NCBI GenBank assembly: GCA_050011875.1
Contig: JBEKIG010000004.1
Coordinates: 196,028-260,027, forward strand
Reading direction: 5' to 3'
Length of the DNA stretch: 64,000 nucleotides
DNA from: Nitrososphaeria archaeon
GTDB taxonomy: Archaea > Thermoproteota > Nitrososphaeria > JACIWG01
The translations under genes were made by a program, and so were the position numbers. Every line of letters starts with the position of its first letter. Within the stretch, counting starts at the first letter, position 1. This document shows positions 3,508 to 60,277 of this stretch, in pieces. The notes beneath the pieces are model-generated. The model worked only from the letters and a program-made list of their open reading frames with translations. It was not told the DNA's origin and did no database searches.

Positions 3508-3523
3508 AAAACCAATCTCTAAC

Positions 3524-4984
3524 ATGACGGTAACTCTGGACGTTGATTCGCTTCCAAGAACGTTGATCACGGACAAAAATGGCTCCTTCTCTACACCCAT
3601 TACACTATCAGTATATGGGGTTCATAATGTGACAGCCAGTTTCTCAGGATTACAATATTATCTTGCAAGCCTAAGCGAAAGGCAGGTCAAAGTCCCTGAA
3701 CTCTCCATAATACCTCTGTCTGACAACATAATTCGAGGTGAAAACAATTCTCTTGCAGCGATAGTCTTGGCCGAAGACCTTCCGGTAGAAAAGGAGGATG
3801 TCCTCATCAGCATGAACGGTACAACAATATCTTCCGCCACAACCGATGTAAACGGCTACATGTTCTTATCCTACAATGCTTCTCCTAACCTCATGATAGG
3901 AAACGTTACCCTCGACTACAAGCTTAAGGACTTTGAAAACGAAGAGAACCAGACCGTCAAAGTGATGACTAAGACATTTATTTCAGTAGAAACGACAAAC
4001 TTTTTGGGGAAACAGATTGACATCACTCCGAAGCTAGTTGACAACTTGGGGACTCCTATCGTAGGACAAGACCTATCCGCTAGCTCGAATATAACAACTG
4101 CTTCTTCTCTTGGAATAACCGACGGCGGAGGAATAGCATCTCTAAAATTAGAAGTACCTAATTCGTCTATGTCTAATAATATTACCTGCAGCATCAGGTT
4201 CAATGGCAGCGAATACCTTCTGCCATCAGAACTCACCCTAATCCTGACCCCTCCGCAAGAGTCATCAGCTGTAGCAAACGCTATATTGGCGGTTGCAATC
4301 CTAGCCATAGTTGGCTTATCTATTGCCATGTTCTTGATCAATGGTCGTCTGAAGAGGCAGAAGGCTATTACCGCACAGACAATTGGATACCAAGAACCAG
4401 ATGAAGGCAGCCGGAGACTGGCTGCTTTTCTTTTTTTATTTTTTATTTCTTTTCCCCAGATACGGGAACAATTTGCGTTAGTTTGGGGAGAACGTGAACC
4501 ACTGGAGGTTCAGGTGAAGATTAACACGACACAACACAAAGAGGCGTACATGATCGTGGATGACGAGAGGGTGGGAAAGCCCGAACTTAGGGTAGGTGAA
4601 GAATTAATGAAGTTCACCCTAGAAAAGGGGACTCACACATTTGCAATAGTGGAAAAAGGCAACAAGATCGCCGAAGTTAAGATCAGGATAGTGAACTACA
4701 GGGAAGAAGTGGTTCAGCTCTACAGAGAATACTTTTTATCGCTTAAGAAAAGGGACCCCAGAATCGTTGAAGAGACAACGCCGAGAGAGTTTGAATCGAT
4801 AGTTAAAAAGGGCGTGCCATCTAACAAGCATCATTCATTGGAATCGGTGGTCTCCCTGTTCGAAGTGGCTAACTATAGCCTCCATACGATAGCGAGAAGA
4901 CAGTATGAGGAAATGTATGTCAACCTTCTTGAGCTGGAACGAAATGAATCTGGTCGAGGAAAAAATTATGCAAGAGAAGATTAG
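3524..4984 (+). CDS. Ig-like repeats + TM + DUF4129-like C-terminus; probable frameshifted continuation of the transglutaminase gene
   Basis: TPREF...LFEVANYS motif. No signal peptide. The frame is open from about 3503 (SEKPISNMTVT). Confidence 0.75.
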   Translation: MTVTLDVDSLPRTLITDKNGSFSTPITLSVYGVHNVTASFSGLQYYLASLSERQVKVPELSIIPLSDNIIRGENNSLAAIVLAEDLPVEKEDVLISMNGTTISSATTDVNGYMFLSYNASPNLMIGNVTLDYKLKDFENEENQTVKVMTKTFISVETTNFLGKQIDITPKLVDNLGTPIVGQDLSASSNITTASSLGITDGGGIASLKLEVPNSSMSNNITCSIRFNGSEYLLPSELTLILTPPQESSAVANAILAVAILAIVGLSIAMFLINGRLKRQKAITAQTIGYQEPDEGSRRLAAFLFLFFISFPQIREQFALVWGEREPLEVQVKINTTQHKEAYMIVDDERVGKPELRVGEELMKFTLEKGTHTFAIVEKGNKIAEVKIRIVNYREEVVQLYREYFLSLKKRDPRIVEETTPREFESIVKKGVPSNKHHSLESVVSLFEVANYSLHTIARRQYEEMYVNLLELERNESGRGKNYARED

Positions 4985-6320
4985 GGAAAATCTAGAATTT
5001 GGACAGGGAAGCGGCCAGGCATCAAAGGAGGCTGTAGGCACTAAGAGAAATTCTAAATCGGTTATTAAAACGACTATCTTAGTATTTGCAACACTTGTCG
5101 TACTGAGTCTGCTTTTTTTCTACGTCGGTTCGAACTTGAGTCAAATTTTTTGGGGCAAATTTTTCATGTACTTATATTATCCGATATCAGGCATTATCAT
5201 TGTCGTTTATACAATAGAAATGTTTGGTCAGTTCTTTGAAGGCGATTTTGTTAAGGCCATATCCAACCATATAGAAGTCCCGGTTATGGTGGTCACCTTT
5301 ACGCTTACCCTGTTCAACCCCCAGATCGTGTTCCCCGACTCCTACAAGACTGCAGGGTATTTGATCATCGGCACAGTATTGGTTTGGGCCACCCACAGCA
5401 TAATAAAAACTTATTCGAAGATCGCGAGCACCTTCACGTTCGCAGCTCTACTCACAATCACCGGATATATGATAAAGACAATAATAGAATCCTATATGGG
5501 TTTAAATCTGGATCTACCTTTTTCACCCGGCAACATAGTTTTCTACTGCTTTCTAGCAACTGCTGCTCTATCATTGTTATCCTTCTTCAAATACTCCAGT
5601 AAAGACTACCTTTACTATATCGGAAACAAGCTGAGCAGCTACACCGTATTATTTGGCATAGGGGTTGTTGCATTCTTTGTTCAGGTATACCTGCTGTACA
5701 TCAGGCCTTCCTTTCCAGCATCGATTTCTCCGTATCTTTTAGTCGCCGAATGGACCGCTGTCTGCTGCATTTCATTCGCGGTCTTCAAGAGTGTGAGAGA
5801 CCATCTCTTGAGTGTCTCACAGACCTTGAAGTTTGGCGAATGGAGTGTGCTAACACAGAAGATAACCAACAAGAAGGAGGAACTAAACATTATGTCGGAC
5901 TTCATTGATGACGGAAAAAAGGAACGCCTGTTAATGCTAATCTCCCATATCCTTCTTTCCAACGACATCCCATATAAGATCGGTGAAGAAGCAATAGGAG
6001 AGCTTGTGCAATACCGCGACCCTGAACCTCCAAAGATCGTATCAAAGCGTATGGCTGGAGAAATGAGAGAAGAGAATAGAAGAAACAGGCAGAGGATACT
6101 GGAGAAGACGCTCAAAACCGTGGAAGATGTCATCAACAAAAACTATCTTTCGAATAACGATAGGCAATTCATAGAACCGGGTGAACTTCCGGATAGTTCC
6201 AATGTATTGAAAAGATGCAGCCAGTGTGGAAAGGAATATCCAGTAAGGTTTGGAGAGTGCCCATTTTGTTATGTAAGAAAGGCTTCCCCAAGAGTATATC
6301 TTCCTGAAGAATATATCTGA
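4968..6320 (+). CDS. Multi-pass membrane protein with C-terminal zinc ribbon
   Basis: About 8 TM segments and CSQC...CPFC. Start chosen at ATG 4968 to minimise overlap. Confidence 0.75.
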   Translation: MQEKIRENLEFGQGSGQASKEAVGTKRNSKSVIKTTILVFATLVVLSLLFFYVGSNLSQIFWGKFFMYLYYPISGIIIVVYTIEMFGQFFEGDFVKAISNHIEVPVMVVTFTLTLFNPQIVFPDSYKTAGYLIIGTVLVWATHSIIKTYSKIASTFTFAALLTITGYMIKTIIESYMGLNLDLPFSPGNIVFYCFLATAALSLLSFFKYSSKDYLYYIGNKLSSYTVLFGIGVVAFFVQVYLLYIRPSFPASISPYLLVAEWTAVCCISFAVFKSVRDHLLSVSQTLKFGEWSVLTQKITNKKEELNIMSDFIDDGKKERLLMLISHILLSNDIPYKIGEEAIGELVQYRDPEPPKIVSKRMAGEMREENRRNRQRILEKTLKTVEDVINKNYLSNNDRQFIEPGELPDSSNVLKRCSQCGKEYPVRFGECPFCYVRKASPRVYLPEEYI

Positions 6321-6408
6321 ATGTGCGGTTTTTAATTCTCGGATATTAACCTATCAGAAACAATAACTATATTTGAATGAAACATATAAGAATTGATTTA
6401 ACGTATAC

Positions 6409-7335
6409 ATGGGGATGAATGCTAGACCTATCAGTACGTATTCGATAATTGCGATAAGTAAAAAAGAAAATTTAATGGGCGTAGCGGTGCAATCGCACTG
6501 TTTCTCCGTTGGTTCGGTCGTTCCCTGGGCTGAATCAGGTGTAGGAGTCGTTGCAACCCAGTCGAGGACTGAACCTAGTTACGGCCCCTTAGGCCTGTTT
6601 CTTATGAAAGCTGGCATTAGAGCAGGAAAAACGCTTGAGGCGCTTTTAACAACCGATCCTAAAGAAGACGTTAGGCAGGTTGCTATGCTGGATACAATTG
6701 ACGGAATAGCGGCGCACACAGGCACCCAATGTATTCCTGAGTCAGGACATCTAATAGGGGATGACTTTAGTGTTCAGGCTAACCTAATGAAGAGCAAGGA
6801 AGTTTGGCCTGCTATGGCTTCCGCTTTTAGAAGGAGTGGAGGAACTTTCATGAGACGGCTGATGTCCGCTTTAGATGCCGCTGAAGACGTTGGAGGCGAC
6901 ATTAGAGGAAGACAGTCCGCTGCGATGCTTGTCGTAAAATGTCGGTCAACAGGCATACCTTGGGAAGATAAGGTCATCGACCTAAGAGTAGAGGACCATC
7001 CTGAGCCGCTTAAGGAACTCCACAGATTGATAACAATCAGCGAAGCCTACGAGATTAACAGCATTGGAGACGACTTGATCGCACAGGGAAAGGTCAAAAA
7101 GGCAATCAAAGAGTACAGGTTGGCAAACAGGAAAGCGCCAGAGATATTGGAGCTTAAGTTTTGGCAGGTGGTATCATTGCTCAATAGCGGCAACTTCGAA
7201 ACCGCAAGGGAAATCCTCAAAGATGTTCTGGCCGCCGACAGAAGATGGAAGAAGATTCTGTTATCTCTTCCCCGACCAGCTATACTATCTGTGGATGAGG
7301 AAACCCTGTATAAAATTGTAAACGAACCTAGATAG
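6409..7335 (+). CDS. DUF1028 family Ntn-hydrolase-like protein with TPR-like tail
   Basis: TYSIIA, GVAVQSH, GVVATQS, GGDIRGRQSAA and DLRVEDHPEP motifs. Confidence 0.9.
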   Translation: MGMNARPISTYSIIAISKKENLMGVAVQSHCFSVGSVVPWAESGVGVVATQSRTEPSYGPLGLFLMKAGIRAGKTLEALLTTDPKEDVRQVAMLDTIDGIAAHTGTQCIPESGHLIGDDFSVQANLMKSKEVWPAMASAFRRSGGTFMRRLMSALDAAEDVGGDIRGRQSAAMLVVKCRSTGIPWEDKVIDLRVEDHPEPLKELHRLITISEAYEINSIGDDLIAQGKVKKAIKEYRLANRKAPEILELKFWQVVSLLNSGNFETAREILKDVLAADRRWKKILLSLPRPAILSVDEETLYKIVNEPR

Positions 7336-7870
7336 GATATCGCTGAAATAAACGAACAAAGAATTATGTATTTGCGGCCAACGAACCGTGAACCTCAGAC
7401 AATGTTGGCACCAAACGTCTTTTGTCTGGTATAGTTGACGATGAGCTTCCGGAAGGAAGCTGTACCAAGGTGACCTGGGATAGTTATTAAGGTAAAAGAA
7501 CGTACAAGTACCTAGTGCAAGATCGTCCTTGATAAGCACTCCAACTAGGATATTATACGGAATAATCCTTAAAAGTAAAGAAGATGTAGATAAAAAAACT
7601 GATAATATGGCTCAAGGTCTCCTACGAAGCTTCTTAATCATAAAGAAAGAAAGGAACTGGAAACGGCGTCTATGCTTCATCAGCAGTTAAGGAGATCTTC
7701 AGGGCTTTCATACAGGTCACAAAGTATTCATATCTCCCGTTTGGGCTTCGAGTTCCCTCTCCTTACTAAATTCATCTCCCAACTCATTTAGCCAAAATCT
7801 CGGCTGCGATTTTTCCTAAGTCAGATGTACCCCGATAAGGGCACATTACGCAAGGTCATAGAGCAGATGT

Positions 7871-8014
7871 ATGAGGTATTTTAAAAAGAATGATGATTTC
7901 ATCACATTATTCATCTGGATTATCGGAGTTGGTTCCGTAGTCGTACTTATCTGTGCGATAGCGTACTTCCTGTTATCGGTACGGGGCAAAAGGAGCTATT
8001 TCCTGAATTGGTAA
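7871..8014 (+). CDS. 47-aa single-TM small protein
   Basis: Manual translation: MRYFKKNDDFITLFIWIIGVGSVVVLICAIAYFLLSVRGKRSYFLNW*. Confidence 0.45.
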   Translation: MRYFKKNDDFITLFIWIIGVGSVVVLICAIAYFLLSVRGKRSYFLNW

Positions 8015-8148
8015 ACGGTCTTTTAGGTCGTTTCAAGTCCAAATTTACCTAAAAAAAATAGTGCAAAAACATACGATTTTTTTACCATGAAACGAGTCTG
8101 GCACGACGTCGCCGTGCCATTTACTAATGTGGTAAACGTAAGGGACAC

Positions 8149-8182
8149 ATAACCAGTTTGGTTATATAACCAGTTTGGTTAT
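8149..8182. repeat. Two tandem copies of the 17-bp palindrome ATAACCAGTTTGGTTAT
   Basis: Exact copies at 8149-8165 and 8166-8182, with arms ATAACCA/TGGTTAT. Confidence 0.95.
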
Positions 8183-8185
8183 ATC

Positions 8186-8386
8186 CTAAATATTGCCCTT
8201 TCGATATAAATCTTGTTTTAGATTCTTCAGCTCGTTCAAAGTAGTTAGAATGTTCTTTTGTATGGCATCCTGGTTCCCACACACCTGCTTGAACTGAGCC
8301 TTCTGATCAGCAAATAGAGCGTTCACTGTCTTGTTCTGCTCACTTATTGAAGCCAGAATCAGAAGCTCCAGCTCCCTATCGGACAA
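8186..8386 (-). CDS. 66-aa helical hypothetical protein
   Basis: ORF track; amphipathic/coiled-coil composition; TTG start. Confidence 0.5.
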   Translation of the reverse strand: MSDRELELLILASISEQNKTVNALFADQKAQFKQVCGNQDAIQKNILTTLNELKNLKQDLYRKGNI

Positions 8387-8407
8387 CTTTCCAAAAATTA
8401 AAACTGA

Positions 8408-8610
8408 TTGAGCAAAAAAATAATTTTAAATTTGGTTTGGCTCAACACGTTTTAAAACAAAATGCTAACGATAACTATTTCCCGTTGGCTCAACTTAAAT
8501 GCGTTCTGCATGAGAGCGATATGATGCACGATATTGCACAGGGACATCAGAACAGGGCCAGATGCAGAATGTTTATCGATAGCATTTCCGATTTTTTCTG
8601 TTTGAGCCGG
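8408..8610. repeat. ~204-nt structured repeat, copy A
   Basis: Aligns with 8941-9145. Shared blocks are TGCATGAGAGCGATATGATG and TAGCATTTCCGATTTTTTCTGTYTGAGCCGGA. Confidence 0.9.
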
Positions 8611-8650
8611 AATTAGCCCAGTATTATCTAATGATATTATATAATGATAT

Positions 8651-8675
8651 TTTATAATCCAATTTGGGTTATAAA
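8651..8675. repeat. Palindrome TTTATAATCCAATTTGGGTTATAAA
   Basis: 12-bp arms with one mismatch; core related to the 8149 and 9199 palindromes. Confidence 0.8.
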
Positions 8676-8689
8676 CATTAACCATTAAT

Positions 8690-8862
8690 GGTAATTTTGT
8701 TTTAAAGCGAACATTAAACGTTTTTTCATCCGGCCCCGTTGCAAACATTAACTATTTTAGGATAGTTTCTTCTTCTCGAACGTGTATCCCCTCATCTTCT
8801 ATTTCTTTATAGTCTCTTGACGCCAGCAGAACCCAGATATCTTCCATTGATTTCTCCTCCAT
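8690..8862 (-). pseudogene. Small ORF with in-frame TAG (MEEKSMEDIWVLLASRDYKEIEDEGIHVREEETILK*LMFATGPDEKTF...); 3' end uncertain
   Basis: Manual translation from ATG 8862. TAG at 8754-8752 is in frame with track ORF 8452..8748. Confidence 0.4.
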
Positions 8863-8940
8863 ATTTTATTATAATGGGATCCATAAAAGTGATAAAAGCA
8901 GGTCTTATGTCATCTGGTACATTTATCAATTTAAATTAAT

Positions 8941-9145
8941 TTGAGCCAAAGAACAATTTGCAATATTATGTTCGGCTCAAATCATTTTTAACAAAATTGC
9001 TAACGTTAACTTTTTCCTGTTAGCTCAACTTAATATCATCTTGCATGAGAGCGATATGATGTTCAATTGAGCTCTGAGGGATCATACCGAGCTAACAAGT
9101 AGAATATTTGGAGTTAGCATTTCCGATTTTTTCTGTCTGAGCCGG
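8941..9145. repeat. ~204-nt structured repeat, copy B
   Basis: Paralog of 8408-8610 at an offset of 533-535 bp. Confidence 0.9.
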
Positions 9146-9198
9146 ATTTAAAAATCTTAAAACGCACTGGCTCAATGCGTTTTTTTGTTCAGCTATTT

Positions 9199-9219
9199 AC
9201 TTAACCAATTTGGTAAAGT
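9199..9219. repeat. Palindrome ACTTAACCAATTTGGTAAAGT
   Basis: 10-bp arms with one mismatch; TAACCA-RTT-TGGT core. Confidence 0.8.
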
Positions 9220-9291
9220 TTCTTGGATGTTAGGTTGACTAAGTTCCCATATCATTGAAAAGTTTTAATGTAATTTTTGTGATTATTTTTA

Positions 9292-9690
9292 TTATTGTTT
9301 CAACTTCTCTATCACAGACTCAATCGTCTCTACGACTGTTGTTTCATTCCTCAAACCGAGTATAACAATCTTACCTGATGCATAAAGAAGGGTTGTAATA
9401 TTCTTATTAAGTTTAAAAATGGCACCTGGAAACTGTTCTGGTTCATAGATTACATTATCCAGCCTATTCGCTACTTTTTCAATGTCAATCATGCTCCCAA
9501 TATCTGCTAACACAACGATGTTTCTGACTTTAAAATTTGAAGGAATAACAATACTATTAATCACTCTATGGACCTTTAATATTTGAATACATCGATCCAA
9601 GTCATCCGAAGATTCAATAACACTTTTTGAACCAAAGAATTAATGAAAAAAGAATTAGAATACGACCCTTGGAGCAACTGATTTAACGTT
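9292..9690 (-). pseudogene. tbp: TATA-binding protein paralog, intact second repeat and decayed first repeat
   Basis: NIVVLAD...YEPEQFPGAIFK...LLYASGKIVILG. Upstream FGSKSVIESSDDL is in frame, preceded by a stop and a frameshifted KGRILI. Confidence 0.85.
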
Positions 9691-9919
9691 ATTCTTTGAA
9701 TATCAAATTTGAAATTAACTATTACATTAATGCTTAAACCTATAAGAACAATTTTTAGAATAAACTTGATAGACTATATAAAATCTTTTTGAAATTCATT
9801 CTTTTTATGTTCTTGGCAAAAGCTAACAAACCAAGATTGTTTAAGTATCTTTACTACTTTTTGGAGGGGTAATTCCTACTCTATTTTTTATGTGTAGATT
9901 ATTATAATTTTTTATCAGC

Positions 9920-10189
9920 AAAAGATGTAATAGGGACTCGAACCCATTTAGGTATGAATCGCGCCTGGTCCACTCGATTGTTGGTATTACCTGAACCAGT
10001 TTAAGGCCTCGGCACCAGGGTGTTAACTGCTAAATAGTGTAGATTAGGGGTTTAAAGAGGGTTTAAACCGCTTGTCTTCCTGAGCTTGGAGTTATTTTAA
10101 CAGGATTTCCACCTTAATTAATTGGGGAATCGAACAAGGTAAGCTTGATCCAGCATCTATAGTAAGTACACACAGCAGACTGTTTACAT
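9920..10189 (-). ncRNA. Candidate structured non-coding element, copy 1 (conserved core 9976-10189)
   Basis: About 92% identical to 59337-59551, with several hairpins and no conserved ORF. The repeat is certain; RNA status is inferred. Confidence 0.6.
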
Positions 10190-10259
10190 TCTGGTTTGAA
10201 TATCAACCTAATGTAGTTCAACTTTTTGTAAAAGACCGTAATGATGTTCTAAACCTAAG

Positions 10260-10541
10260 GTGAGAAACAGAACTAAAATTGTAATTGTTGTTGTTATTGT
10301 CCTACTCGTAGCTGTATATTATTCTCTAAGCACGTTTGAAATTAGTACTGTAGACTCCAACCCAACAGGGAGGTACTATGAACTGTCTGTTTATGATGGA
10401 CAGGCACAGATAGCTTACGTTTCAGTCATATTGTCTAAACAAGTCTATAGAAACAATGCTTTGAAGATAGCTAATGGGTTGCTGGAAGATGGTGCGCGTT
10501 TTGCAGTTGGAATCGATGGCTTTGACAGTAAAATCAATTGA
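10260..10541 (+). CDS. Small secreted/membrane-anchored hypothetical protein
   Basis: Basic N-terminus followed by a hydrophobic stretch; 93 aa. Confidence 0.6.
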   Translation: MRNRTKIVIVVVIVLLVAVYYSLSTFEISTVDSNPTGRYYELSVYDGQAQIAYVSVILSKQVYRNNALKIANGLLEDGARFAVGIDGFDSKIN

Positions 10542-10560
10542 ATAAAGACAGTTCTGGCGA

Positions 10561-10905
10561 TTATGCTATGTAAGATACCATGTTCTGAAATTTTGGGCAC
10601 CAATTTGAGAATTCGCATACATCCTTAATTTTACAGAAAGTAAGGTCATTCGAATACATCGAATCATAGTTCTTACACTGGTTCCAAGGCTCTATCACTC
10701 CTATTCCATAAAAACAGAGCCTCAGCCTAGACAACTTCTTTAAAGAGATAGGCTCCTTAGTTTCCCAGTCCCATGCCGGAATCTTAACTACTCTATCTTG
10801 GAACCTTATTTCAATGAACTCGCCTGCCTTTAAAATCTTTCTTGCATCAATTGGCACCTTCACCGACGCCATAGCCCATTTTTTGCATGACCGACAACAC
10901 TTCAA
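10561..10905 (-). CDS. Cys-rich hypothetical protein
   Basis: CCRSC at the N-terminus and several C-terminal Cys residues; 114 aa. Confidence 0.6.
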   Translation of the reverse strand: MKCCRSCKKWAMASVKVPIDARKILKAGEFIEIRFQDRVVKIPAWDWETKEPISLKKLSRLRLCFYGIGVIEPWNQCKNYDSMYSNDLTFCKIKDVCEFSNWCPKFQNMVSYIA

Positions 10906-11080
10906 CTAGGATCACATCTAAACTCCTAATAGTGTGTAAGACAAAGATAAAATCCTTTTTGCAGTTAATATAAATCCGTTCAGAATAGTTCAGACACTTG
11001 AATAGAATATATTTGAATATGGAGAGTAACTCCTTTCCTAGACTTGCTTCCGTTGCTTTTTAACTACATCATATAAATAT

Positions 11081-12643
11081 TCAGTGAGACTGACTTTGGA
11101 CATCCACATCCTTTCTTATCCTGCTCTTTTCGATATCCAAACCATTCCATGTTATTGAATAGCCCAGAGCTTCGATTACCTGGTACGGTTCTTTTATGTT
11201 GTTTGCTTCAACAGCCTCCAACGCTTCAGAGAGCTTCTCTATCCCCATTAGACTAGTTTCTATTTTTTTTAGAACTGAGTCGGATATGAAGTAGTCACCA
11301 ACCCTCTTGTAGCCTTCGAAGGTTAGGGTTGAAAGAACCTTCCTGGCAGATTCGACACTAATCGAATTACCTCCTGCTATGTCTTCTATTTTTACTATAT
11401 CACCTGCCAATTTGATGTCCCTAAGCTTTGATGCATGAGACTCGTTTTCGATAACACCTTTCTCGCGCTCCTTTAAGTGTTCTATTATAGGCTTGATCGA
11501 CACATCATCCTTATAGTATACGACTTGGATTTTTAGGTCGCGGAGTCTAGAGCACGCGTACTTTTCATTCACTGCGACAATTAAGTCGACATCTTCCACC
11601 GTTTCAAGCTTTGCGATCTTTCTTTCAAGATAGTCTGGGGTCCAGAATCCAACGATCTCCAAGTACACCTTCATATTGTATTTCGTAAACCTGAAGTCAG
11701 GTATCAGCACATGTCTGCCCACAGGCAGAGGTTCAGGCTCTCTTTCGAGCACCCATCCGGAGCCGTAAGCGTTGAAGGTTTTGGCAAATCGTTCTTCAAC
11801 ACTGCTATCATATGTCTGTTTGGATGGTGTGTCTTCTGATCCAGTGCTCTCGATCAACCCCTTCATCTCATCGCTGGTAAGTTTGAATGTGTAGATTCTG
11901 TCTTTGTTCCTTCCCAGTACATCAGCTTTAATCCTCCAATAGCCCGATTCGATCACCGTTAGTAGAAGTTTCGCCAGCGCTGTTCCATATCTGTCGGTCA
12001 TTTTAAAGAGCGAAAGTGGGCCGTCGACAGTTACCTTATAACTATCGTCCTCACGTTCGACCGCATACATTAAGCCCAACCATTTAATAGATCTGAAGAT
12101 GCTCTTCCAATTTCCTGAAACTGTGAACTCCAGCTTTAGGGATCTAAAGAGCATTGTCTGCGTTATTGAAAGGTTGTAAGACTTCAACAACGCATCCGGC
12201 GATATTGGACTGAAGTCCTTTAGGATCAGTTCTTCTTCGACGTCGGAATATAGTACTTTTTCAAGAGCTTCAGCATGTATGCCAAGCTTCGCTGAGACTT
12301 CTTGGATAACTCTCCCCCTTTGCTCAACGTCCACTACTCTGACGTCGCTTGCCTTTTGGAACACCATCATCCTGGCTTCTGCGGGATCGATAGGCGCATC
12401 GGATTTAAACACACTTCGCCTTTCGAGAAGAGCGAACAACCCTCTTACGAACCTGTAATCGAAGCCTTCATCTTCAAGGGTTCTCAGCTTTTCCATCATC
12501 TCTCCCTTCCTTCTACCCACATTGTTTCTAAAGACTTCAATAACCCGTCCAGCGAAGTTCAAGTCGCCTTCTTCCAAATGCGCGTATACGGGGTTAACCT
12601 GCCCATGTGAAACTCTAACCCTTAGAAGGTCATATGCAAGCGT
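11081..12643 (-). CDS. bax1: Bax1 / DUF790 family endonuclease
   Basis: IPDF...YLEIVGFWTPDYL PD-(D/E)xK motif, and located downstream of XPB. The frame extends to an ACG at 12643 (xLAYDLLRVRV). Confidence 0.9.
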   Translation of the reverse strand, partial: TLAYDLLRVRVSHGQVNPVYAHLEEGDLNFAGRVIEVFRNNVGRRKGEMMEKLRTLEDEGFDYRFVRGLFALLERRSVFKSDAPIDPAEARMMVFQKASDVRVVDVEQRGRVIQEVSAKLGIHAEALEKVLYSDVEEELILKDFSPISPDALLKSYNLSITQTMLFRSLKLEFTVSGNWKSIFRSIKWLGLMYAVEREDDSYKVTVDGPLSLFKMTDRYGTALAKLLLTVIESGYWRIKADVLGRNKDRIYTFKLTSDEMKGLIESTGSEDTPSKQTYDSSVEERFAKTFNAYGSGWVLEREPEPLPVGRHVLIPDFRFTKYNMKVYLEIVGFWTPDYLERKIAKLETVEDVDLIVAVNEKYACSRLRDLKIQVVYYKDDVSIKPIIEHLKEREKGVIENESHASKLRDIKLAGDIVKIEDIAGGNSISVESARKVLSTLTFEGYKRVGDYFISDSVLKKIETSLMGIEKLSEALEAVEANNIKEPYQVIEALGYSITWNGLDIEKSRIRKDVDVQSQSH

Positions 12644-12662
12644 TATCCATCACCACTCAGTC

Positions 12663-14018
12663 TTAATCCTCCGTCATTCTGCTCCGTTTTCTTCTCCAAC
12701 TGGTCCGTGTTTCTGATGTCCCACTCGACACGATTTCTATCAGTTTGGCTTTTTTCCCTTCCCTCTTCCTCAGTAGTCTACCTAACCTCTGTATGAATTC
12801 TCTCGCGCTACCTGTGCCGCTTACTATGATCCCAAGGGACGCTTCAGGTACATCTATTCCCTCATCCAACACCTTAGAGGTTACTACCGCCCTGAACCTT
12901 CCATCTTTGAAACGCTTCAGTATTTCATGTCTCTCTTCTTTGTCAGACATATATGTTATGTAAGGGATAAGGAAACGCTTTGATATACGGTACACTAGGT
13001 CGTTATGTTGTGTGAAGATGAGTGTTCTGTCTTCAGGGTTTGATCTCAGTATATCCTCCAAGGCTTTGATCTTAGATTCTGAGTTGAGGGCTATGTCCTG
13101 CGCTCGATTTCTAGCGAGTAGCGCCTGTCTAGCGTTTCTGTCTCTCGCCGTAAGCATGATAAACTTCCTAAATTCATCAGGCGAAGTGATTCTTATCTTC
13201 CCACTTGATAGGTAGTCAGAGAACACCCTCCAGTTCCTTCCATATTCTTCCTTCTCTTCATCTGTAAGTTCAACGCTTATTCTATGGAGAGTATACGTTG
13301 AGAGATACCTTCCTGTAAGATCTTCCGGCTTTCTCCTGTACACGACGCCTCCCGTTAACCTCGGCAGCTCTTTATGGAGCATGTCCTCCCTTTCATAGGT
13401 CGCCGTCAAGCCCATCCTATAAGGAGCTGTGAACATTTCCGCGATCAACCTGTAACCTTCAGCCGCTAAATGGTGAACTTCATCAAAAATAATGAGGCTG
13501 AACCTGTTGCCTATCTCACCCGCCTTAAGATATGCGGAGTCGTAGGTGGAAACCGTTAGAGAGCCAATCCGAGTGTCTCCTCCTCCGTAAACTCCAATTT
13601 CGATCCCGAATTCCGCTTCAAGCCTGCTTCTCCACTGCTCTACCAGATCTAGAGTTGGCACGATAACTATTGACGACTGGTCAACGAGTTCGATGGCCTT
13701 GATGGCTATGACAGTTTTTCCAGAACCCGTAGGAAGCACTATTATCCCCTTCCTCCCACCTTTATCCCAAGCTTCCAACGCATCTTCTTGATAGTCCCTT
13801 AAGTGGATCCCGCTTCTCAAGTTCGGCGATGGCACAAGGTTTTGGACGGTGTCGCTAAAAGTCATCCTACTGTTCCTAAGATATTCGACTATTTCTTGAT
13901 AATATAGCGCTTGAGCCCTAAAAGCTCTAACTCTGTCGTCCCATACGGCGTACGGTATTCTAACATCCCCTCTGACCAGTATGCTACCTCTATCAAAGGA
14001 TAGGACCACAGGCTGCAA
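12663..14018 (-). CDS. xpb: XPB-family SF2 DNA repair helicase
   Basis: LPTGSGKT, DEVHH, GLTAT and QRLGRLLR motifs. Start is probably TTG 14018 or GTG 14009 rather than 14105. Confidence 0.92.
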   Translation of the reverse strand: MQPVVLSFDRGSILVRGDVRIPYAVWDDRVRAFRAQALYYQEIVEYLRNSRMTFSDTVQNLVPSPNLRSGIHLRDYQEDALEAWDKGGRKGIIVLPTGSGKTVIAIKAIELVDQSSIVIVPTLDLVEQWRSRLEAEFGIEIGVYGGGDTRIGSLTVSTYDSAYLKAGEIGNRFSLIIFDEVHHLAAEGYRLIAEMFTAPYRMGLTATYEREDMLHKELPRLTGGVVYRRKPEDLTGRYLSTYTLHRISVELTDEEKEEYGRNWRVFSDYLSSGKIRITSPDEFRKFIMLTARDRNARQALLARNRAQDIALNSESKIKALEDILRSNPEDRTLIFTQHNDLVYRISKRFLIPYITYMSDKEERHEILKRFKDGRFRAVVTSKVLDEGIDVPEASLGIIVSGTGSAREFIQRLGRLLRKREGKKAKLIEIVSSGTSETRTSWRRKRSRMTED

Positions 14019-14256
14019 CGGTAAACCACAAGCCATCCGGTGTTCGGCGTTTACAGCGTATAAAGTTATATAAACAATCGGAATGAATTCACTTAATCTG
14101 TACATTCATTGCGCCATATCAAGAGAGAATGTCGAAAAAGATCTGGCAAAAAACAAGTTTGGAAAGATGCAGATTAAGGGAATGTTAACGGAATTGCACC
14201 AGCTTGTTCTAATAACGCATCTTTAGACGAGTATATCACAAAGCATTTGCTGGGCT

Positions 14257-15117
14257 TTAGGTTCTTACATTTTTGTTAACTAGGTAGATGCCAAATAAAA
14301 CCACAGCAACACCAATTATCTGATACAGGTTAACGGTTTCATTAAGTAAAAACGCTCCTGCGATAAAGGCTATTACAGGAATCAGTAGACTCGACGAAGA
14401 TACAGTTGTTGCATCCTCATTCTTAATAAGGTAGAACCATAGGAAGAATACTAATACGGTTGATAGGACTGTCGCATAAACTATTGATAACAAATAAGTT
14501 GGCTCATATATGAAGCTGATTCCACCTGTGGCAAGCGCCAGAGGAAGCACTATAAAGGAGCCGACTGCGACCCCTGAGAAGCTGATCCAGTAAGGGTGAA
14601 CTGAGCTAGAAATCAGTTTATAATAGACTATCGACACAGCCCAGAGGAACGCTCCAATCAACAGAAAAAGAAAAGATTCTAAAGTTCCACTTCCTAATTC
14701 CTCCAGATAGATGATTCCTATCCCAACAAATCCCAGCAGAACGCCTACGATCTTCACTTTCGTAATCTCATTTTTAAGGAACATCGCTGATAAGACAAAG
14801 ACGAATAATGGCTGTGTGTAGGTGACAATAGCACTTATGCCTGAACCCTCAACCTGCAGCGCTAACATCATGAAAACCATACTAAACGAGTAAATAGCGG
14901 ATTGTAGTATAACATTTATGATGTTTCTAGAGTCTCTATGAAATCCGTTCTTGATAAAAAAAAGAAACGGAACCATCATAAAGGCTGAAAAGAAGAATCT
15001 CTGAAAAAGATAGTTCATTGAGCTCGTATAGCTGAGTCCTATCTTCATGTTAGCCCAGTTAAAACCCCATATTATTGCAACAACCAAAATAATGATCAAA
15101 TCCTTTCGATTCTTCAA
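14257..15117 (-). CDS. EamA/DMT family transporter
   Basis: 10 TM segments in two EamA repeats (IIWGFNW, YTQPLFV, LNE). Confidence 0.9.
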   Translation of the reverse strand: MKNRKDLIIILVVAIIWGFNWANMKIGLSYTSSMNYLFQRFFFSAFMMVPFLFFIKNGFHRDSRNIINVILQSAIYSFSMVFMMLALQVEGSGISAIVTYTQPLFVFVLSAMFLKNEITKVKIVGVLLGFVGIGIIYLEELGSGTLESFLFLLIGAFLWAVSIVYYKLISSSVHPYWISFSGVAVGSFIVLPLALATGGISFIYEPTYLLSIVYATVLSTVLVFFLWFYLIKNEDATTVSSSSLLIPVIAFIAGAFLLNETVNLYQIIGVAVVLFGIYLVNKNVRT

Positions 15118-15434
15118 GCTCTTTTATCTCTGGATATGACCGACTGAAGAGCCCTTTATTAAAACGTATTCATAAAGATTTATTGGACTCCGTACATATG
15201 AACTGTATACATCAAGATCACAGATCTTGAACCATCCTATTCCAGACATCAATTTACACTCCTAATGTTCTAATCATTCTCGAATATGTGGTCTGGAGAT
15301 GAACGACCCCGAAACGAACTTATATATTACTGGTCTTTTGATTGAGATATGACAAATTTGTTAAAGCAACAAAGACTTATTGCGAATTATAAGGTTCGCT
15401 TTATTGAAATCTTAATTGCCTATGGTGAATCTTA

Positions 15435-16181: not shown

Positions 16182-16655
16182 TGGAGATGCAATTGGCAAA
16201 CGGCACTTAAAATTATATGCCGGATTCGATCTACACTTTCCGATTTGAATTTACAAGGATTTACATCGGTTACTAGCAGAGCTTTTAAATCACTAATAAT
16301 TGTGCTTGCTTTCTTGTTCACAAAATCTCTACAATGGAGGCACAGATATTAGCTAGCCCAGCTAGTGTAGCAGAATCTTTTACAATTAATTCAATAAAAA
16401 AAGCAGCCATATGTGGAAACCGATCAAGTAGACTTATCACATAAACCGTAAAGATACGCAAGATGATTCTAACCTCTACTATTAACTTACACCTTGTAAA
16501 GACTTCACGATAGTAAGCCTGATTTTCCAACCCAATGCAATAGGCCAGCAAAGACGAGTGTAATTGGGTTTCACAAACACGTTGCAAATGTGCTAATATC
16601 TCCTTAACAGGCCAGTAAAAGTTCATAAACATCTCATAGAAAAGAGATTCTGTTC

Positions 16656-55446: not shown

Positions 55447-55651
55447 TCTTTCGAAATTAAAATATACCTTAGTTTTTCTTTCAAAATTTTGCACAGAACT
55501 GGAAACTGAACTAAAATCCTCCAAAAAATCTCAGGTTGATGATAAACTGATGGTAACTCAAAAAATTCTGTATTTTATTTATAATAGAAGTGTGCGTGAT
55601 TAAAGTTTAGCATCGACCCAGTACACTTGTTTCCACTGGAAAAACCCAACA

Positions 55652-56026
55652 TTAATTTGATTCATGCCTGAGCTTTGGGATCAATCGTGGGGTTCGTTGC
55701 ATGTATTCACGATACTTGTCGCCGAACCTATCGATCAGCATAAGCTCCTCCTTACCTATCTGCGCGTAGATAATCGTGATCAGGACAAGGGCCGGCAAAA
55801 GGAGAAGCCAATTGGAGGCCACAAGAGCGAGGGCTACTATGAAGGTGAAGGACCCCAAGTAAATCGGATTCCTAACATAGTGGTACGGCCCGCTCGTCAC
55901 CAGTGTCTCCCTCTTCCTCTCCAAGAACTTCGACGATTCCAGGACATGTACCCAATTCTTACCAAGCGTCCGATAACCCCAGAGTGTGAATGGAATGCTC
56001 AGAGCGGATACGCCGACCATAATTAA
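55652..56026 (-). pseudogene. ICMT/PEMT-family methyltransferase, 3' half of an interrupted gene
   Basis: LGKNW, LVTSGPYHYVRNPIYLG and EELMLIDRFGDKYREY motifs; N-terminus missing here. Confidence 0.9.
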
Positions 56027-56181
56027 TGACAACTATTTTGATATTGGTTATTCCTGGAATCGTATGTATTTTACTAGGTCTATTTTATGACAATGGAGGA
56101 TTTAGTTTTTCTAATAATCTTTAATAATTATTGTTTCATAGATATTTGTAAATTTAGATCGTTCTAAAGTTTAAAAAGAAT

Positions 56182-57234
56182 CTAAACTTTCCCTCCAAGA
56201 GATAAAGGTCGTGCCAAGGTTTTCAAGTCTAGTTGCTTGTCATACAAGTCAAGAAAACGTTTAACAGGCTGTTCATGTCCACGATATTTCTTAGCAACCT
56301 TCAAAAAATCTTTCGCCTGCCATTTTGGTCTTAAGAAAAGGTCACGGAAGTACTGTATTCCGATATCAGCTACTATTGAATAAGCCATGCTAAGAGGAAT
56401 CGAACCTCCAGAAAGTAAATAAACAATTATCCCAAGAAGCCCGTTATAAAAAGCATGTGGACCGTATTTCTTTAGGGGTGACCGCCTCTCTTGCTGTGCT
56501 ACTCGGTAAGCAGCAGAGAAATCAACGAAATTTGGCCAAGATCTTGCCCGTTCCTCGCACCAATTTGCCATCTCGATTTGAATATCCTGTAATCTCTCAG
56601 CTTGTTCTTTTAGGTGAATGCTACTCCTCTCAGAAGGTTTTTCAGAAACTGTTCTAAAGTTACCCCCAATGTTCTGGACAAGCTTATTTATTTTTTTAAA
56701 AATATCAAACAGTTTGATATTCTGTTGATCTGCTATTTTTAATTGTTTAATATATCCTTCTTCAATTAACGTTTTGGGGTTGGGGTAGACACAATTTCTG
56801 CTAACATCAACTATTTTACTAACGTAATTAATGTAGGTGTCAAAAAGTTCGAATAGTCTAGGTGGATAGAAAGGGGTAAGATAAATGTTCAACCAAACAA
56901 TCGTTGTCTTAAAGATTCGTGTGTATAATCTTGCATCAAAAGGGATAGTCCTTGCCTTGGAATCCATAACGCTGAACCCCTCAACGATATCTCCCAAGGT
57001 TCTAGCTTTGAGATATAAAGAAGGAATTATGGGAGTTAAGAGATATAAAGGTAAGTTCATTAAGTTAAATTTCCAATATTTAAAGTTAGGATAGTAAAAT
57101 GCAACAAAATATTCCTTATTTTCAATCTCAATAGGCCCGTAAACGTTAATATGTTCATGACTAGTTTTCAATAAAGATGCCTCGTCTTGGAATACCCTAT
57201 CCATTACTATGCCTCCCAAACGTCTAACTTTCAT
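56182..57234 (-). CDS. 350-aa hypothetical protein with C-terminal hydrophobic hairpin
   Basis: Long ORF with its own TATA box (TATAAATA about 35 nt upstream). Confidence 0.75.
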   Translation of the reverse strand: MKVRRLGGIVMDRVFQDEASLLKTSHEHINVYGPIEIENKEYFVAFYYPNFKYWKFNLMNLPLYLLTPIIPSLYLKARTLGDIVEGFSVMDSKARTIPFDARLYTRIFKTTIVWLNIYLTPFYPPRLFELFDTYINYVSKIVDVSRNCVYPNPKTLIEEGYIKQLKIADQQNIKLFDIFKKINKLVQNIGGNFRTVSEKPSERSSIHLKEQAERLQDIQIEMANWCEERARSWPNFVDFSAAYRVAQQERRSPLKKYGPHAFYNGLLGIIVYLLSGGSIPLSMAYSIVADIGIQYFRDLFLRPKWQAKDFLKVAKKYRGHEQPVKRFLDLYDKQLDLKTLARPLSLGGKV

Positions 57235-57452
57235 CGACTAGGTCAAAGATAATTTCTCTTTAGACAACTATTTATAGTGTTTCTGCCTAAGTTACTTGTC
57301 AAATAAGAAGCCCTTGTTTCGTTAATCCAATAATCGAAAAGTCTATTTGACACGTTCGATGGTTTACATATTCCAATTTAATATCAGATAATATACGAAA
57401 ATGGTTATTTGTTTTTCTGAATCTACTTATTTTGGCTTGGAAAATTATAAAA

Positions 57453-57902
57453 TTAAAGATGATGATAAATTGTCATGATCGAATCTGGTCCATTAAATTC
57501 CACTATCCATTTTTTCATGATTTCCAATCCTATTAAACCATGATCAAGATTTCCCTGAAAACAAATGGCAGCTTCTATGCCCGAGGATGGGGCAATCCAA
57601 TCATCGATTTTGACTATATTTCCAAAACAATAAGTGGCGGAAACTGTTTGACCTGTCGCTACCTTGATATTGGTTGGTGAAAGCCTAACTCCTATTTGTA
57701 GAGGTTCACTTTTATATTGGAAAGGCATGGAAATAGCACCACTATAACCAGTATCAAGCATACATTTAATAGGGATAGAAATTGTTTGTGCATTTTGAGG
57801 ATTAACCATTTTTATTGTGATTCTAACATAATACCCTTTTCTTTCTCCTTTTTTCTTCAGAACAAGCTCCCTTCTATTAATACCAGCCGTCAAAGTAATC
57901 AC
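57453..57902 (-). CDS. Retropepsin-like (clan AA) aspartyl protease
   Basis: MLDTGYSG catalytic motif, ATG flap-like segment and GLIGLE hydrophobic-hydrophobic-Gly motif. Confidence 0.85.
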   Translation of the reverse strand: MITLTAGINRRELVLKKKGERKGYYVRITIKMVNPQNAQTISIPIKCMLDTGYSGAISMPFQYKSEPLQIGVRLSPTNIKVATGQTVSATYCFGNIVKIDDWIAPSSGIEAAICFQGNLDHGLIGLEIMKKWIVEFNGPDSIMTIYHHL

Positions 57903-58398
57903 TACCCACTTTCCATATAAATATTGATAACGATTGTGGGATCATCTGAATTTTTTTCAGTAGATCGACTTTTGTCGGGGCTACTTCTATTACTTGGCCT
58001 TTGAAATTGAATGCTACAAATAACCCATCTTGGAGTTTAAAATGTTGTATTGCATGTTTAGCTATCGATCGCATTAAGTATGTAAAATCCCTCTCTGATA
58101 ATTCCTTTTTATCACGTAGTTTCAAAGTTGATGGCGGAAGATATGGAAAAGGGGTTGGATCAAAGAAGAATTTGATTTCATCTTGTTCTTGGATTAGAGT
58201 AAAATGTTGTTTTCCAGCTCTTGAAAGTGAGGTGTCATGTATGAAAGGATCAGGTTTTTCAAATTCGACTAGTTCGTGTCCTATTTGAGAGACGGCCGAC
58301 GTTTTTTCTATATAACCCTGATAGTAGTCCCTTGTATGATTGCCTACTATTATCTTTTCATTAGGTTGAGTGCTTGCACTAGGTAATAAGCTACTCAA
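57877..58398 (-). CDS. Hypothetical protein with DUF5678-like C-terminal domain
   Basis: GLFVAFNFKGQVIEVAPT...IFIWKVG pattern; overlaps the protease gene. Confidence 0.6.
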   Translation of the reverse strand: MSSLLPSASTQPNEKIIVGNHTRDYYQGYIEKTSAVSQIGHELVEFEKPDPFIHDTSLSRAGKQHFTLIQEQDEIKFFFDPTPFPYLPPSTLKLRDKKELSERDFTYLMRSIAKHAIQHFKLQDGLFVAFNFKGQVIEVAPTKVDLLKKIQMIPQSLSIFIWKVGSDYFDGWY

Positions 58399-59059
58399 GT
58401 TTCATGACCTCAATAATATTCTTAATCAATTCCTTATCTTGTGAAACCCATTTATCCACTTTATCTTTCTCTTTACTTCTAAAAACTACGTTGCAAGCAA
58501 ATTTATTTGGTTGAAGAACATCTGGATATACATCTATATTAAACCATTCTATCTGATTAGGCATAGCATTCTTTGGGCAGAACTTTAAACCGAATAGTTG
58601 AGTAGGAATTGATAGTATATTTTCTATTTTCTGATTGAAAATTATCATATTTGTTAAAAGACCAAACTGTTTTATTGCACTTTCTGTTGCCTGGATTCCA
58701 TAAGAACCTATAGATTCATAAAATTTTACATTGGATTTTAGATTGACTTGAATTTGCTTTTCTACAATGTCAATCAATTCATTAAATGCTTCAACTATCC
58801 TTTCTGAAGATGAACCCTCCAAACCTAATTGGTTATTGATTGTTTCTATATTAACTACAAACTCATTCTTTCTGGCAAAATAACCACTCGCTTGAAAATG
58901 AGCTGGTCGAGGTGGAAGGGATTTTGTAAGGGGTTCAATTTGATAGCCATTTTTTGCAAGAACTTCTCGAAAGTCTCTGATATCTATTGGGAAAAAGACA
59001 TCGTTTGTTACAATAGCTAAAGAAATGTTGTATGTAACTACTAATGGTGAAGTTAACAT
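58391..59059 (-). CDS. Hypothetical alpha/beta protein heading the protease module
   Basis: About 222 aa from ATG 59059; 8-nt overlap with the next gene. Confidence 0.75.
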   Translation of the reverse strand: MLTSPLVVTYNISLAIVTNDVFFPIDIRDFREVLAKNGYQIEPLTKSLPPRPAHFQASGYFARKNEFVVNIETINNQLGLEGSSSERIVEAFNELIDIVEKQIQVNLKSNVKFYESIGSYGIQATESAIKQFGLLTNMIIFNQKIENILSIPTQLFGLKFCPKNAMPNQIEWFNIDVYPDVLQPNKFACNVVFRSKEKDKVDKWVSQDKELIKNIIEVMKLE

Positions 59060-59302
59060 AGTATCCCAACTAAATTCATAATTAATAATTGCCAATTTAA
59101 AAATATTTTCTTTTTCTTCTCACAAGTAGAATTTAAGGAGTTGCATACCCGTTCAGATACAAATCCCGGACGCCGCATTGACTTTGGCGTTATGTGCTAA
59201 AATCATGCTTAATTTATTATTAATTATAATATCCAGATGTCTTTTTTTGGCGTTATGATTTGCCAATGACAAAGGCCTTTTCATTATCTAAAAGAAATTT
59301 GG

Positions 59303-59551
59303 AAAAAATAACAGATCCAAATAGCTGAGCCAGCTTGATTGTTGGTGTTACCTGAACCAGTTTAAGGCCTCGGCACCAGGGTGTTAACTGCAAAATAGTG
59401 CAGGTTAAGGGTTTAAAGAGGGTTTAAACCACCTTGTCTGCCTGAGCTTGGAGTTATTTTAACAGGATTTCCACCTTAATTAATTGGGGAATCGAACAAG
59501 GTAGGCCTGATCCAGCATTTATAGCAAGTGCAGACAGCAAATTTTGAACAT
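59303..59551 (-). ncRNA. Candidate structured non-coding element, copy 2 (conserved core 59337-59551)
   Basis: Same orientation as, and about 92% identical to, 9976-10189; ends in a minus-strand U-tract. Confidence 0.6.
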
Positions 59552-59613
59552 AAGGCATAAAAAAGACGCAAATAATTAATTAAAAAAATAATTAACAGTC
59601 AACTATAGGTTTG

Positions 59614-59871
59614 TTTGAACTAATCAGGCAAAGGAATCGAGAGAAACATAATCCAACTCGGAATTATGATGTAGAGTATTATCCCTCCAAACCAGAAGAG
59701 AGCAAACAGGGCAAGGGCTACGATATGCAACCGACTTTCACGTCGAACCGTCTGGTCAATCGATGGTTTACTCTTCGGCTCCCTTAATGAGTACATTACC
59801 CATGTTATATTAACAATGAAGATAAACCACAGAGTCGAGAAGATAACCCTGAAAAGCAGCTCGTTCGTCAT
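59614..59871 (-). pseudogene. ICMT/PEMT-family methyltransferase, 5' half
   Basis: MTNELLFRVIF...FLSIPLPD*FK, with two TM helices; TAG at 59622-59620. Confidence 0.8.
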
Positions 59872-59881
59872 TGTGGCAGCC

Positions 59882-60277
59882 TTAATCATTATCAGTTTTT
59901 CGTTTGAAATGTGCTAATGAATAGCAAAGTAAATTTGACGCTAGTTCATCGTATTTCTTGCATTGAGCCTTTAACTCATTTAATCCAGCAGGTTCAAAGC
60001 CATAGATCTTGCAATCTCGTTCTAACTGTTGATATTTTACCCAAGCCCTTTCACTTTCTGAAATCTGAAAATCCGTGACCTTATTAAGATCCTCTATTGC
60101 AGAATCTAGTGCGTTCCGATCTGCACCAGTAGAGGATTCATTATGGCTGACTTTTAGTTCTAGCCTGTTCATCTTCTCCTTAATTTTTTCTACAGACCTC
60201 AGGGCCTTCATGTAACTTTTCCTGATGTCTCTCACTTCTTTGTCAATTTGGCTTTGAATCTTGACAACTTCTTGCAA
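59882..60277 (-). CDS. Coiled-coil hypothetical protein
   Basis: 131 aa, helical composition. Confidence 0.6.
   Translation of the reverse strand: MQEVVKIQSQIDKEVRDIRKSYMKALRSVEKIKEKMNRLELKVSHNESSTGADRNALDSAIEDLNKVTDFQISESERAWVKYQQLERDCKIYGFEPAGLNELKAQCKKYDELASNLLCYSLAHFKRKTDND

Follow-up and report, generated by a model that had tools for sequence, protein, structure and literature searches.

Why should a non-coding sequence of little more than 200 nucleotides (nt) occur at two separate places in an archaeal genome, each time upstream of unrelated genes? The question is raised by a window of 64,000 nt (G000:C4:196028-260027) from G000, a 2.64-Mb archaeal metagenome-assembled genome (MAG) of 119 contigs. 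An initial annotation, made from the letters of the window alone, had flagged positions 9976-10189 (copy 1, C4a) and 59337-59551 (copy 2, C4b) as copies of an element that would be the cis-acting end, or an encoded RNA, of an undescribed non-autonomous cargo element. The sole congener in our genome collection, G001, is titled "Nitrososphaeria archaeon", and the order is represented there by ten genomes, G000 and G001 included. From the repetition and anatomy of the element, the order of module, cargo and element, one precise gene-splitting insertion and a terminus common to two genomes, we give about an even chance to the reading that it is the right-hand, DNA-level end of small, genus-specific cargo islets that are non-autonomous or were formerly mobile.

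Where the initial annotation had implied two copies, BLAST recovered a family of ten, six in G000 (Table 1) and four in G001. Order-wide, the element was matched only in these two of the ten genomes, with zero copies in the remaining eight. A class-wide search of 41 genomes gave three with a match, the third of which (29 nt, E = 1e-3) was taken as chance. An exact 22-mer search of the genome collection returned four matches, in G001 only. A degenerate 25-nt core had no match in viral contigs and four in metagenome contigs, all from the same organism and 99.4-100% identical to G000. The count of about 18 differences made by hand between the flagged copies held up, with 18 mismatches and one gap column in a global alignment (91% identity); BLAST gave 92.7% over 206 nt (E = 6e-82). 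Pairwise likeness of the copies is mostly about 90%, in a star-like pattern, with the exception of copy 2 and the C15 copy, which are 98-99% alike. Both window copies share a 63-nt stretch without a difference, and many columns are invariant across all ten copies.

Self-comparison of G000 showed that 0.40% of its bases, in 41 segments, have at least four other copies. Just two non-coding interspersed families occur among these segments; the element is one of them, and together with the module described below it makes up most of the non-coding segments. An apparent 20-copy repeat, considered as an insertion sequence (IS), was rejected since it consists of coding PQQ-propeller repeats. BLAST of both copies with their flanks against the whole of G000 found only the six copies and some small motifs, and no autonomous IS with matching ends. 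A full-text search for "miniature inverted-repeat" together with "Thaumarchaeota" returned one unrelated paper, and this repeat was not found described (the supplementary tables of PMC6563490 lay outside that search).

The flagged 215 nt proved to be the core of a non-coding element of about 330 nt (window ~59291-59622). Copy 2 is 92% identical to the copy on contig C3 of G001 over 59291-59605, with weaker likeness on to 59622, and BLAST of the copy 2 region to C10 and C14 gave 88-91% over 330 nt. The left edge at 59291/2 is common to the C15 copy and the G001 copy at locus L008, and is met from three different neighbours: a 150-nt block (copy 2, C10 and C14), the module (C15) and cargo (G001). 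Beyond 9973 and 10189 the similarity of copy 1 to copy 2 equals that of shuffles, and an extension of copy 1 past its edges was rejected because its scores were no better. At the termini, 22 of 25 nt are repeated directly at both ends of the G001 copy, which was equalled by 6 of 2000 shuffles, and by short BLAST three copies carry a 12-mer of this repeat twice, once at each end, at a distance of 273-280 nt. The element is also rich in TTAA (11 per 315 nt, 2.0 expected) and GTTTAA (3, 0.13 expected), with successive TTAA sites spaced 19-22 nt.

As the initial annotation had stated, there is no conserved open reading frame (ORF): the copies differ by 1-2-nt indels, and the translated identity is 76% at the amino acid (aa) level versus 93% at the nucleotide level (C4a). 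A six-frame translated search of 59101-59660 against the genome found the known copies only and therefore no diverged coding parent. An array of about 390 nt made of 11-nt-period units with TAAAG takes the place of the left half in the C11 copy. This array (L018 1686-2072; G000 C11:17382-17768), whose units hold CTTTA/TAAAG, belongs to a separate interspersed family, and similar arrays lie at C6:5728-6241, C2:144009-144274 and elsewhere.

Copy 2 is the terminal segment of a delimited insertion in an ICMT/PEMT gene. The initial annotation had placed it about 60 bp inside the end of an insertion that splits a host gene. Measured against intact relatives, the flagged copy ends about 65 nt inside the right end, and when the longer unit is counted its end lies 11-17 nt from the end of the 3.59-kb insertion. 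The relatives comprise 52 full-length proteins of 169-398 aa, with P0001 (211 aa) as reference. The N-terminal piece stops at TAG where the relatives encode W84, and the gene is broken at codons 84-86, across which the intact proteins read ...SIPLPD-W-F/L-R-LIMVGV. The underlying DNA is CCT GAT TGG TTC CGG TTA ATT in three of seven intact homologue loci, with CTC for TTC in one more; the search motif missed the other three. On the minus strand of G000 the near junction reads CCT GAT TAG TTC and then foreign DNA, and the far junction ...CAAAATAGTTGTCA, then TTA ATT ATG, so about 3.59 kb has taken the place of no more than 9 bases of the host. TAGTT is present at either junction (plus-strand AACTA at 56031-56035 and 59618-59622), and the same pentamer is found inside the right repeat of the element. 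At the junction pentamer the intact relatives read AACCA, and four adjoining host bases differ in G000.

Since both pieces of the gene are otherwise undecayed, the event is not ancient. The four ORFs of the insertion are single-copy and lie on the minus strand; none of them matched Pfam, PHROG or PADLOC. There is no recognisable recombinase in the 3.59 kb, and such insertions, lacking a recombinase of their own, would therefore be non-autonomous. An empty site was not found in G001 because the gene is absent from that genome, and the N-terminal piece was not found in five family genomes. The closest intact relatives of the split gene (82-87% to P0001; L061-L064) are in MAGs labelled Bathyarchaeota, several of them from the sample series of the congener, and the gene may have been acquired horizontally.

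Both window copies sit in stretches that are replaced by other DNA in G001. Around the first, window positions 1-7357 and 10423-19473 are collinear with G001 C19:306299-313707 and 324129-333144. The stretch around the second includes the ICMT gene itself, and its replacement in G001 holds a peptide-transporter operon. On contig C3 of G001, conserved flanks enclose a 2.45-kb block, bounded by the element on one side and by the module on the opposite side, where G000 has 5.3 kb of other DNA. This copy has the same right terminus as copy 2, at a non-syntenic site. In the 5.3-kb counterpart of G000 there is an ORF which, read by eye only, we take to be IS6-type transposase-like. A direct-repeat search at the island borders of G001 gave nothing decisive. 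An empty site for the C11 unit was not found in G001 because the C11 flanks lie on different G001 contigs.

The remaining G001 loci have their own surroundings. One copy precedes a real tRNA-Cys gene by 137 nt, and a split tyrosine integrase follows beyond that gene, about 0.6 kb from the copy. Another is embedded in a cluster of restriction-modification-like and TIR genes, 5.5 kb from an ORF that is presumably integrase-like, judged from a motif read by eye only. Side observations on these defence-like blocks (L036 7968-13583 and L038 3653-16075) include methyltransferase-like ORFs of 1081 and 793 aa, Vsr-plus-cytosine-methylase-like ORFs, a pentapeptide-TIR protein (PF13676; the sole Pfam-checked member), the split tyrosine integrase by tRNA-Cys and an integrase-like ORF of 437 aa.

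The element does not stand alone in these islands. A module of about 0.8 kb, present in about ten copies in G000 at 74-92% identity, lies to its left and in the same relative orientation in all six loci that contain both, out of ten element loci. The cargo between the two is different in each locus. The module is not nearby for four element copies, and about five module copies are without an element. The module contains a coiled-coil ORF of 66-72 aa, a membrane-peptide ORF of 41-47 aa and a stretch conserved in two overlapping frames; none of its ORFs had a Pfam, PHROG or PADLOC match. A typical unit can thus be written as a 187-nt piece plus the module, 0 to ~4 kb of cargo, and the element. 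One unit, the ICMT/PEMT insertion, has other DNA at its left end.

Table 1. Positions of the element, its copies and the associated features; plain numbers are window positions, and C numbers are G000 contigs.
Feature	Position	Strand	Details
Copies of the element in G000	The two window copies; C15:60529-60724; C10:120-447; C14:118-448; C11:17197-17298		
Copy 1 (C4a) fragment	9973..10189		Corresponds to 59334-59551 of copy 2; cut on both sides
Full-length element, including flagged copy 2	59291..59622		Right terminus of the 3.59-kb insertion
Left terminal direct repeat (AAAAAATAACAG...)	59300..59326		Repeat and 12-mer tests
Right terminal direct repeat	59581..59607		Repeat and 12-mer tests
Extra block left of element	59140..59290		Only in copy 2, C10 and C14; starts with a tRNA-Gly 3'-end-like fragment
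Insertion, ~3.59 kb	56027..59622		Splits ICMT/PEMT; four minus-strand ORFs, tRNA-Gly-like block and element
N-terminal ICMT/PEMT piece, 89-aa ORF	59620..59889	-	Residues 1-83; 89% to P0001
C-terminal ICMT/PEMT piece, 126-aa ORF	55652..56032	-	Residues 87-210; 90% to P0001; PF04191, E 7e-13
Variable island 1, with copy 1	7358..10422		3.07 kb in G000, a different 10.4 kb in G001
Variable island 2, split gene and insertion	55647..59869		A different 5.9 kb in G001
Module, ~0.8 kb, left of copy 1	7825..8615		Partial second copy at 8928-9238
Other module copies	C2:113787-114835; C16:78318-79172; C7:52954-53772; C11:21099-21854 and 117989-118286; C10:12108-13029; C14:1880-2511; C15:60776-61634; C22		
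Module-to-element distance			C15, 52 nt; G001, 1.2 kb; copy 1, 1.4 kb; C14, 1.4 kb; C11, 3.8 kb; C10, 11.7 kb
187-nt piece left of module	7395..7580		Shared with the C11 unit; 88% to C11:22374-22190
tRNA-like fragment abutting copy 1	9933..9973		Small multi-copy motif, six places
Single-repeat TBP-domain gene, 102 aa	9292..9600	-	PF00352, E 1.5e-20; 373 nt left of copy 1
Gene of uncharacterised family, 234 aa	58391..59095	-	241 nt left of flagged copy 2; first cargo gene

If the element works as DNA, it would be an end or a site that is recognised by a recombinase acting in trans. Candidate enzymes would be the tyrosine integrases or the IS200/605 TnpA, which both genomes carry elsewhere, and recombination might proceed via a short core resembling AACTA, found again at the termini. 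On this reading most copies are by now relics, eroded by deletion. In G000 the PF00589 matches are on C6, C16 (two) and C36, with none in the window. TnpB matches lie on C81, C4:1272-3402, C24 and C3, the closest of them some 190 kb away from the window, which starts at C4:196028. One IS110 gene was found on G000 C61 and none in G001, despite the four element copies of the latter. The IS200/605-type locus at G000 C4:504-3519 consists of a TnpB-like ORF, a Y1 tnpA (PF01797) and a second tnpB, and has a counterpart on G001 C6. A link of the element to this resident locus was rejected, as the tnpA-tnpB locus shares no sequence with it.

Several observations weigh against reading the element as the end of a mobile unit. 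Of the co-occurring recombinase, TnpB or IS110 gene that the initial annotation suggested seeking, none adjoins the window copies, and the window islands are free of integrase, TnpA, TnpB and IS110 genes. Just two of the ten copies are full length; the remaining eight are missing their right part, their left part or both, and such raggedness on both sides also fits passive decay. No identical recent copies were seen among the ten, nor any same-species empty site or excised form. The element has no terminal inverted repeats, as an inverted alignment of its left against its right end scored like shuffles. The best inverted pair (19 nt, 84%; 59239/59549) does not stand out from the 62 such pairs counted in 4.4 kb, and only copy 2 has it in full. 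The terminal direct repeat of the window copy is interrupted and by itself not significant (equalled by 417 of 2000 shuffles). The island borders defined by comparison with G001 are off the element by 233 nt and 75-90 nt. At the ICMT/PEMT junctions the duplication is not clean: opposite the TGGTTCCGG of intact relatives, one side of the insertion in G000 reads TAGTTC... and the other side ...TAGTTGTCA. Such junctions would be expected alike from a 5-bp duplication that changed identically in both copies, from a short att-type core brought in by the insert and from joining by microhomology.

Of the idea of a cis-acting end of an undescribed non-autonomous cargo element, the structural part stands: the repeat is non-coding, undescribed and tied to accessory DNA in strain-variable islands, copy 2 terminates an insertion that lacks a recognisable recombinase, and its terminus recurs at an unrelated G001 site. 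Action in cis at the present day is no more than an inference, given that eight of the ten copies are truncated, that no enzyme is linked to them and that neither an empty nor an excised form was found.

The alternative that survives best, which we nevertheless consider unlikely, is that the copies are passive relics of one or a few old integrated elements, such as a provirus, a plasmid or a tRNA-targeting island, functionless today, which segmental duplication and gene conversion, together with deletion and the replacement of islands, would have scattered and trimmed. Several observations speak for it besides the ragged ends. The C10 and C14 copies are parts of a larger duplication that is joined to the same 536-bp exact repeat, and in G001 the C15 copy has an orthologue without the module, the two differing by 930 bp, readable as a deletion, at a short microhomology. 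The left edge of the module carries the remnant of the 3' end of a gene, and divergence among the copies is star-like at about 10%, where the one nearly identical pair suggests conversion. The scattering of tRNA-derived motifs in small multi-copy pieces, described below, points in the same direction. What relics do not readily account for is that module and element keep their order and orientation in six of six loci despite differing cargo, that one right terminus is found at two unrelated sites in two genomes, that a single 3.59-kb insertion interrupts an otherwise undecayed gene, and that the two window copies share an unchanged 63-nt stretch and many columns stay invariant across all ten.

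Regarding the 536-bp repeat, the contig ends G000 C10:1-119, C14:1-119, C12:1-536 and C2:1-119 overlap by exactly 119 nt, and C10 and C14 both join one 536-bp stretch of C12, which branches to C2. This two-copy exact repeat broke the assembly, and it adjoins paralogous threonine-rich secreted proteins.

The tRNA-like fragments beside the window copies are single pieces with no matching second repeat in the window. Next to copy 1, 17 of 18 nt at 9956-9973 match the 3' end of tRNA-Ala(UGC), and an inverted T-arm-like 14-mer at 9933-9946 matches in 14 of 14 nt. Left of copy 2, all 19 nt at 59160-59178 match the 3' end of tRNA-Gly(CCC) (C12:32500-32576). ARAGORN predicted no tRNA gene in the window. 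More widely, two small multi-copy motifs derived from tRNA 3' ends, one Gly(CCC)-like and one Ala-like, occur at window 59140-59180 and 9925-9975 and at C6:11302, C2:109607-109696, C11:9446, C9:86824, C6:93836, C15:54019 and 56897, and C2:2942. On C2 and C11 both motifs stand side by side after a common leader of about 40 nt. None of these motifs is a predicted tRNA gene or an Rfam match, and four motif-B loci had no Rfam match at E<=0.01.

A different kind of function would be that of a binding array, in which the phased TTAA/TTTAAA boxes are bound by a DNA-binding protein, for example a TBP-domain protein, and serve as a promoter, insulator or islet-organising site. The enrichment and regular spacing of TTAA and GTTTAA and the 11-nt-period TAAAG array in the left half of the C11 copy would suit such a role, as would the 102-aa gene adjoining copy 1, which encodes a single-repeat TBP domain and is the only extra TBP-domain gene in G000 and G001. 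Its protein, encoded within a strain-specific island, has a single relative at 77%, and the database contains further single-repeat TBP proteins of about 100 aa. The gene by copy 2 gave a weak structural match of the same kind: in the language-model Atlas, its 234-aa protein had a TBP-like fold at a TM score of 0.54, under the tool's own bar. In contrast, hhalign of the 234-aa family against the TBP alignment gave a probability of 1.2%, and searches of the PDB by sequence and profile with this protein found nothing below E 0.06, so the predicted TBP-like fold is only a lead. The family has 294 clusters at E<=0.001, each of about 220 aa, with Nitrososphaerota among the commonest phyla. A Pfam-confirmed TBP-domain gene is found at only one of the ten loci, and the neighbour genes vary in orientation and distance, which makes a binding array a doubtful explanation.

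Just as doubtful in our view is a bolder combination, in which element and module would be the two ends of a new archaeal non-autonomous cargo shuttle, lacking both inverted repeats and its own recombinase, with short AACTA-type cores and terminal direct repeats of about 25 nt recognised in trans and phased TATA-like boxes bound by the TBP-fold proteins of some units. Such a shuttle, if real, would swap small gene sets between the accessory islands of soil Nitrososphaeria.

With regard to RNA, the other possibility raised by the initial annotation, the stems that it named are present in the sequence and are paired in 96.5% of cells across the copies, and the element contains TATA-like boxes. 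The AAGCTT to AGGCCT change that had been read as preserving a palindrome does not generalise, as the five covering copies have AAGCTT (two), AGGCCT, AAGCCT and AAACTT (one each). Rfam had no match over the window at gathering score, and the five matches around copy 1 at E<=10 were at chance level, far below gathering scores. Folding of both strands gave minimum free energy z-scores of +0.54 and -0.14, no better than shuffles. Compensatory changes were seen in 0 of 27 pairs of the four named stems and in 0 of 28 pairs of the RNAalifold consensus. For the named stems, 234 of 500 shuffles reached the observed covariation score, and in RNAalifold covariation entered as a penalty (+1.37); with copies about 90% alike, these tests have little power. 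A small RNA gene, or a guide or structural RNA of a recombinase, is thus very improbable, considering also that helix 1 has five unpaired cells, that truncated copies lose different halves, and that no TnpB, IscB-like or IS110 gene is adjacent, the single IS110 being confined to G000.

Among the cargo and neighbour proteins, PHROG and PADLOC matched none and Pfam hardly any. Elsewhere in the window, two adjacent minus-strand ORFs of 498 and 480 aa (11081-14105) are, by eye, what we take to be an archaeal Bax1 nuclease and XPB helicase pair.

To place the element as the end of cargo islets among known systems, we compared it with several classes of repeats and integrated elements. Miniature inverted-repeat transposable elements (MITEs) and other non-autonomous IS derivatives are short, non-coding, multi-copy sequences of narrow lineage without a transposase of their own. 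The element resembles them in being short, non-coding, multi-copy, lineage-restricted and devoid of a transposase. Unlike MITEs, it has no terminal inverted repeats, clean target duplication, uniform length or parent IS with matching ends, and it is one end of a larger cargo unit instead of the whole mobile unit. Elements of the IS200/IS605 group have neither inverted repeats nor target duplications and insert by a short specific sequence that resembles the element's far end. The pentamer at the host junction and at the far end, and the Y1 TnpA gene in both genomes, might recall this group. In contrast, the element has no sequence in common with the resident tnpA-tnpB, a look for subterminal hairpins gave nothing convincing, and about four host bases are substituted at the junction. 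Bacterial interspersed mosaic elements (BIMEs) and repetitive extragenic palindromes (REPs) are mosaic intergenic repeats. In a similar way, the element, the module, the two tRNA-fragment motifs and the 11-nt-period array recur intergenically in varied combinations, whereas here the repeats are confined to accessory islands and bracket cargo, and one of them bounds a gene-splitting insertion.

Integrated mobile genetic elements (iMGEs) of Thaumarchaeota offer a further comparison. In the passages drawn on here from Krupovic et al. (2019, PMC6563490), tRNA genes are the target of 57% of such integrated elements, and the att sites are of modest length, with a median of 17 bp. Also documented there are elements inserted within the coding sequence of a gene, and arrays formed where one site was used repeatedly. 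Cryptic integrated elements and iMGEs as treated in those passages resemble the units here in being strain-variable DNA with unrelated cargo, and may also do so in their link to tRNA 3' ends and their very short att sites. They differ in that the window units are without an integrase and in that the tRNA-like fragments are single, do not form a flanking att pair and do not adjoin real tRNA genes. A conserved end of about 330 nt with a module of about 0.8 kb is not among the iMGE features described in the same passages. A corresponding test of the window units found no PF00589 gene inside them, and a 5-nt repeat at the ICMT junctions. The element is a lineage-restricted repeat that is best filed in the broad class of non-autonomous or decayed integrated elements.

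For uncultured soil archaea, little is known about the movement of accessory genes, and the majority of islands show no visible mobility gene. The family described here offers a handle on this movement, with a conserved end segment, a partner module, readable gene-splitting junctions and a congener with alternative content. If the ends are not recombination sites, the family would be a case of conserved, stem-rich repeats that head islands and yet are plain relics. If they are, they would represent a new family of non-autonomous elements in Nitrososphaeria and would point to an enzyme that acts in trans.

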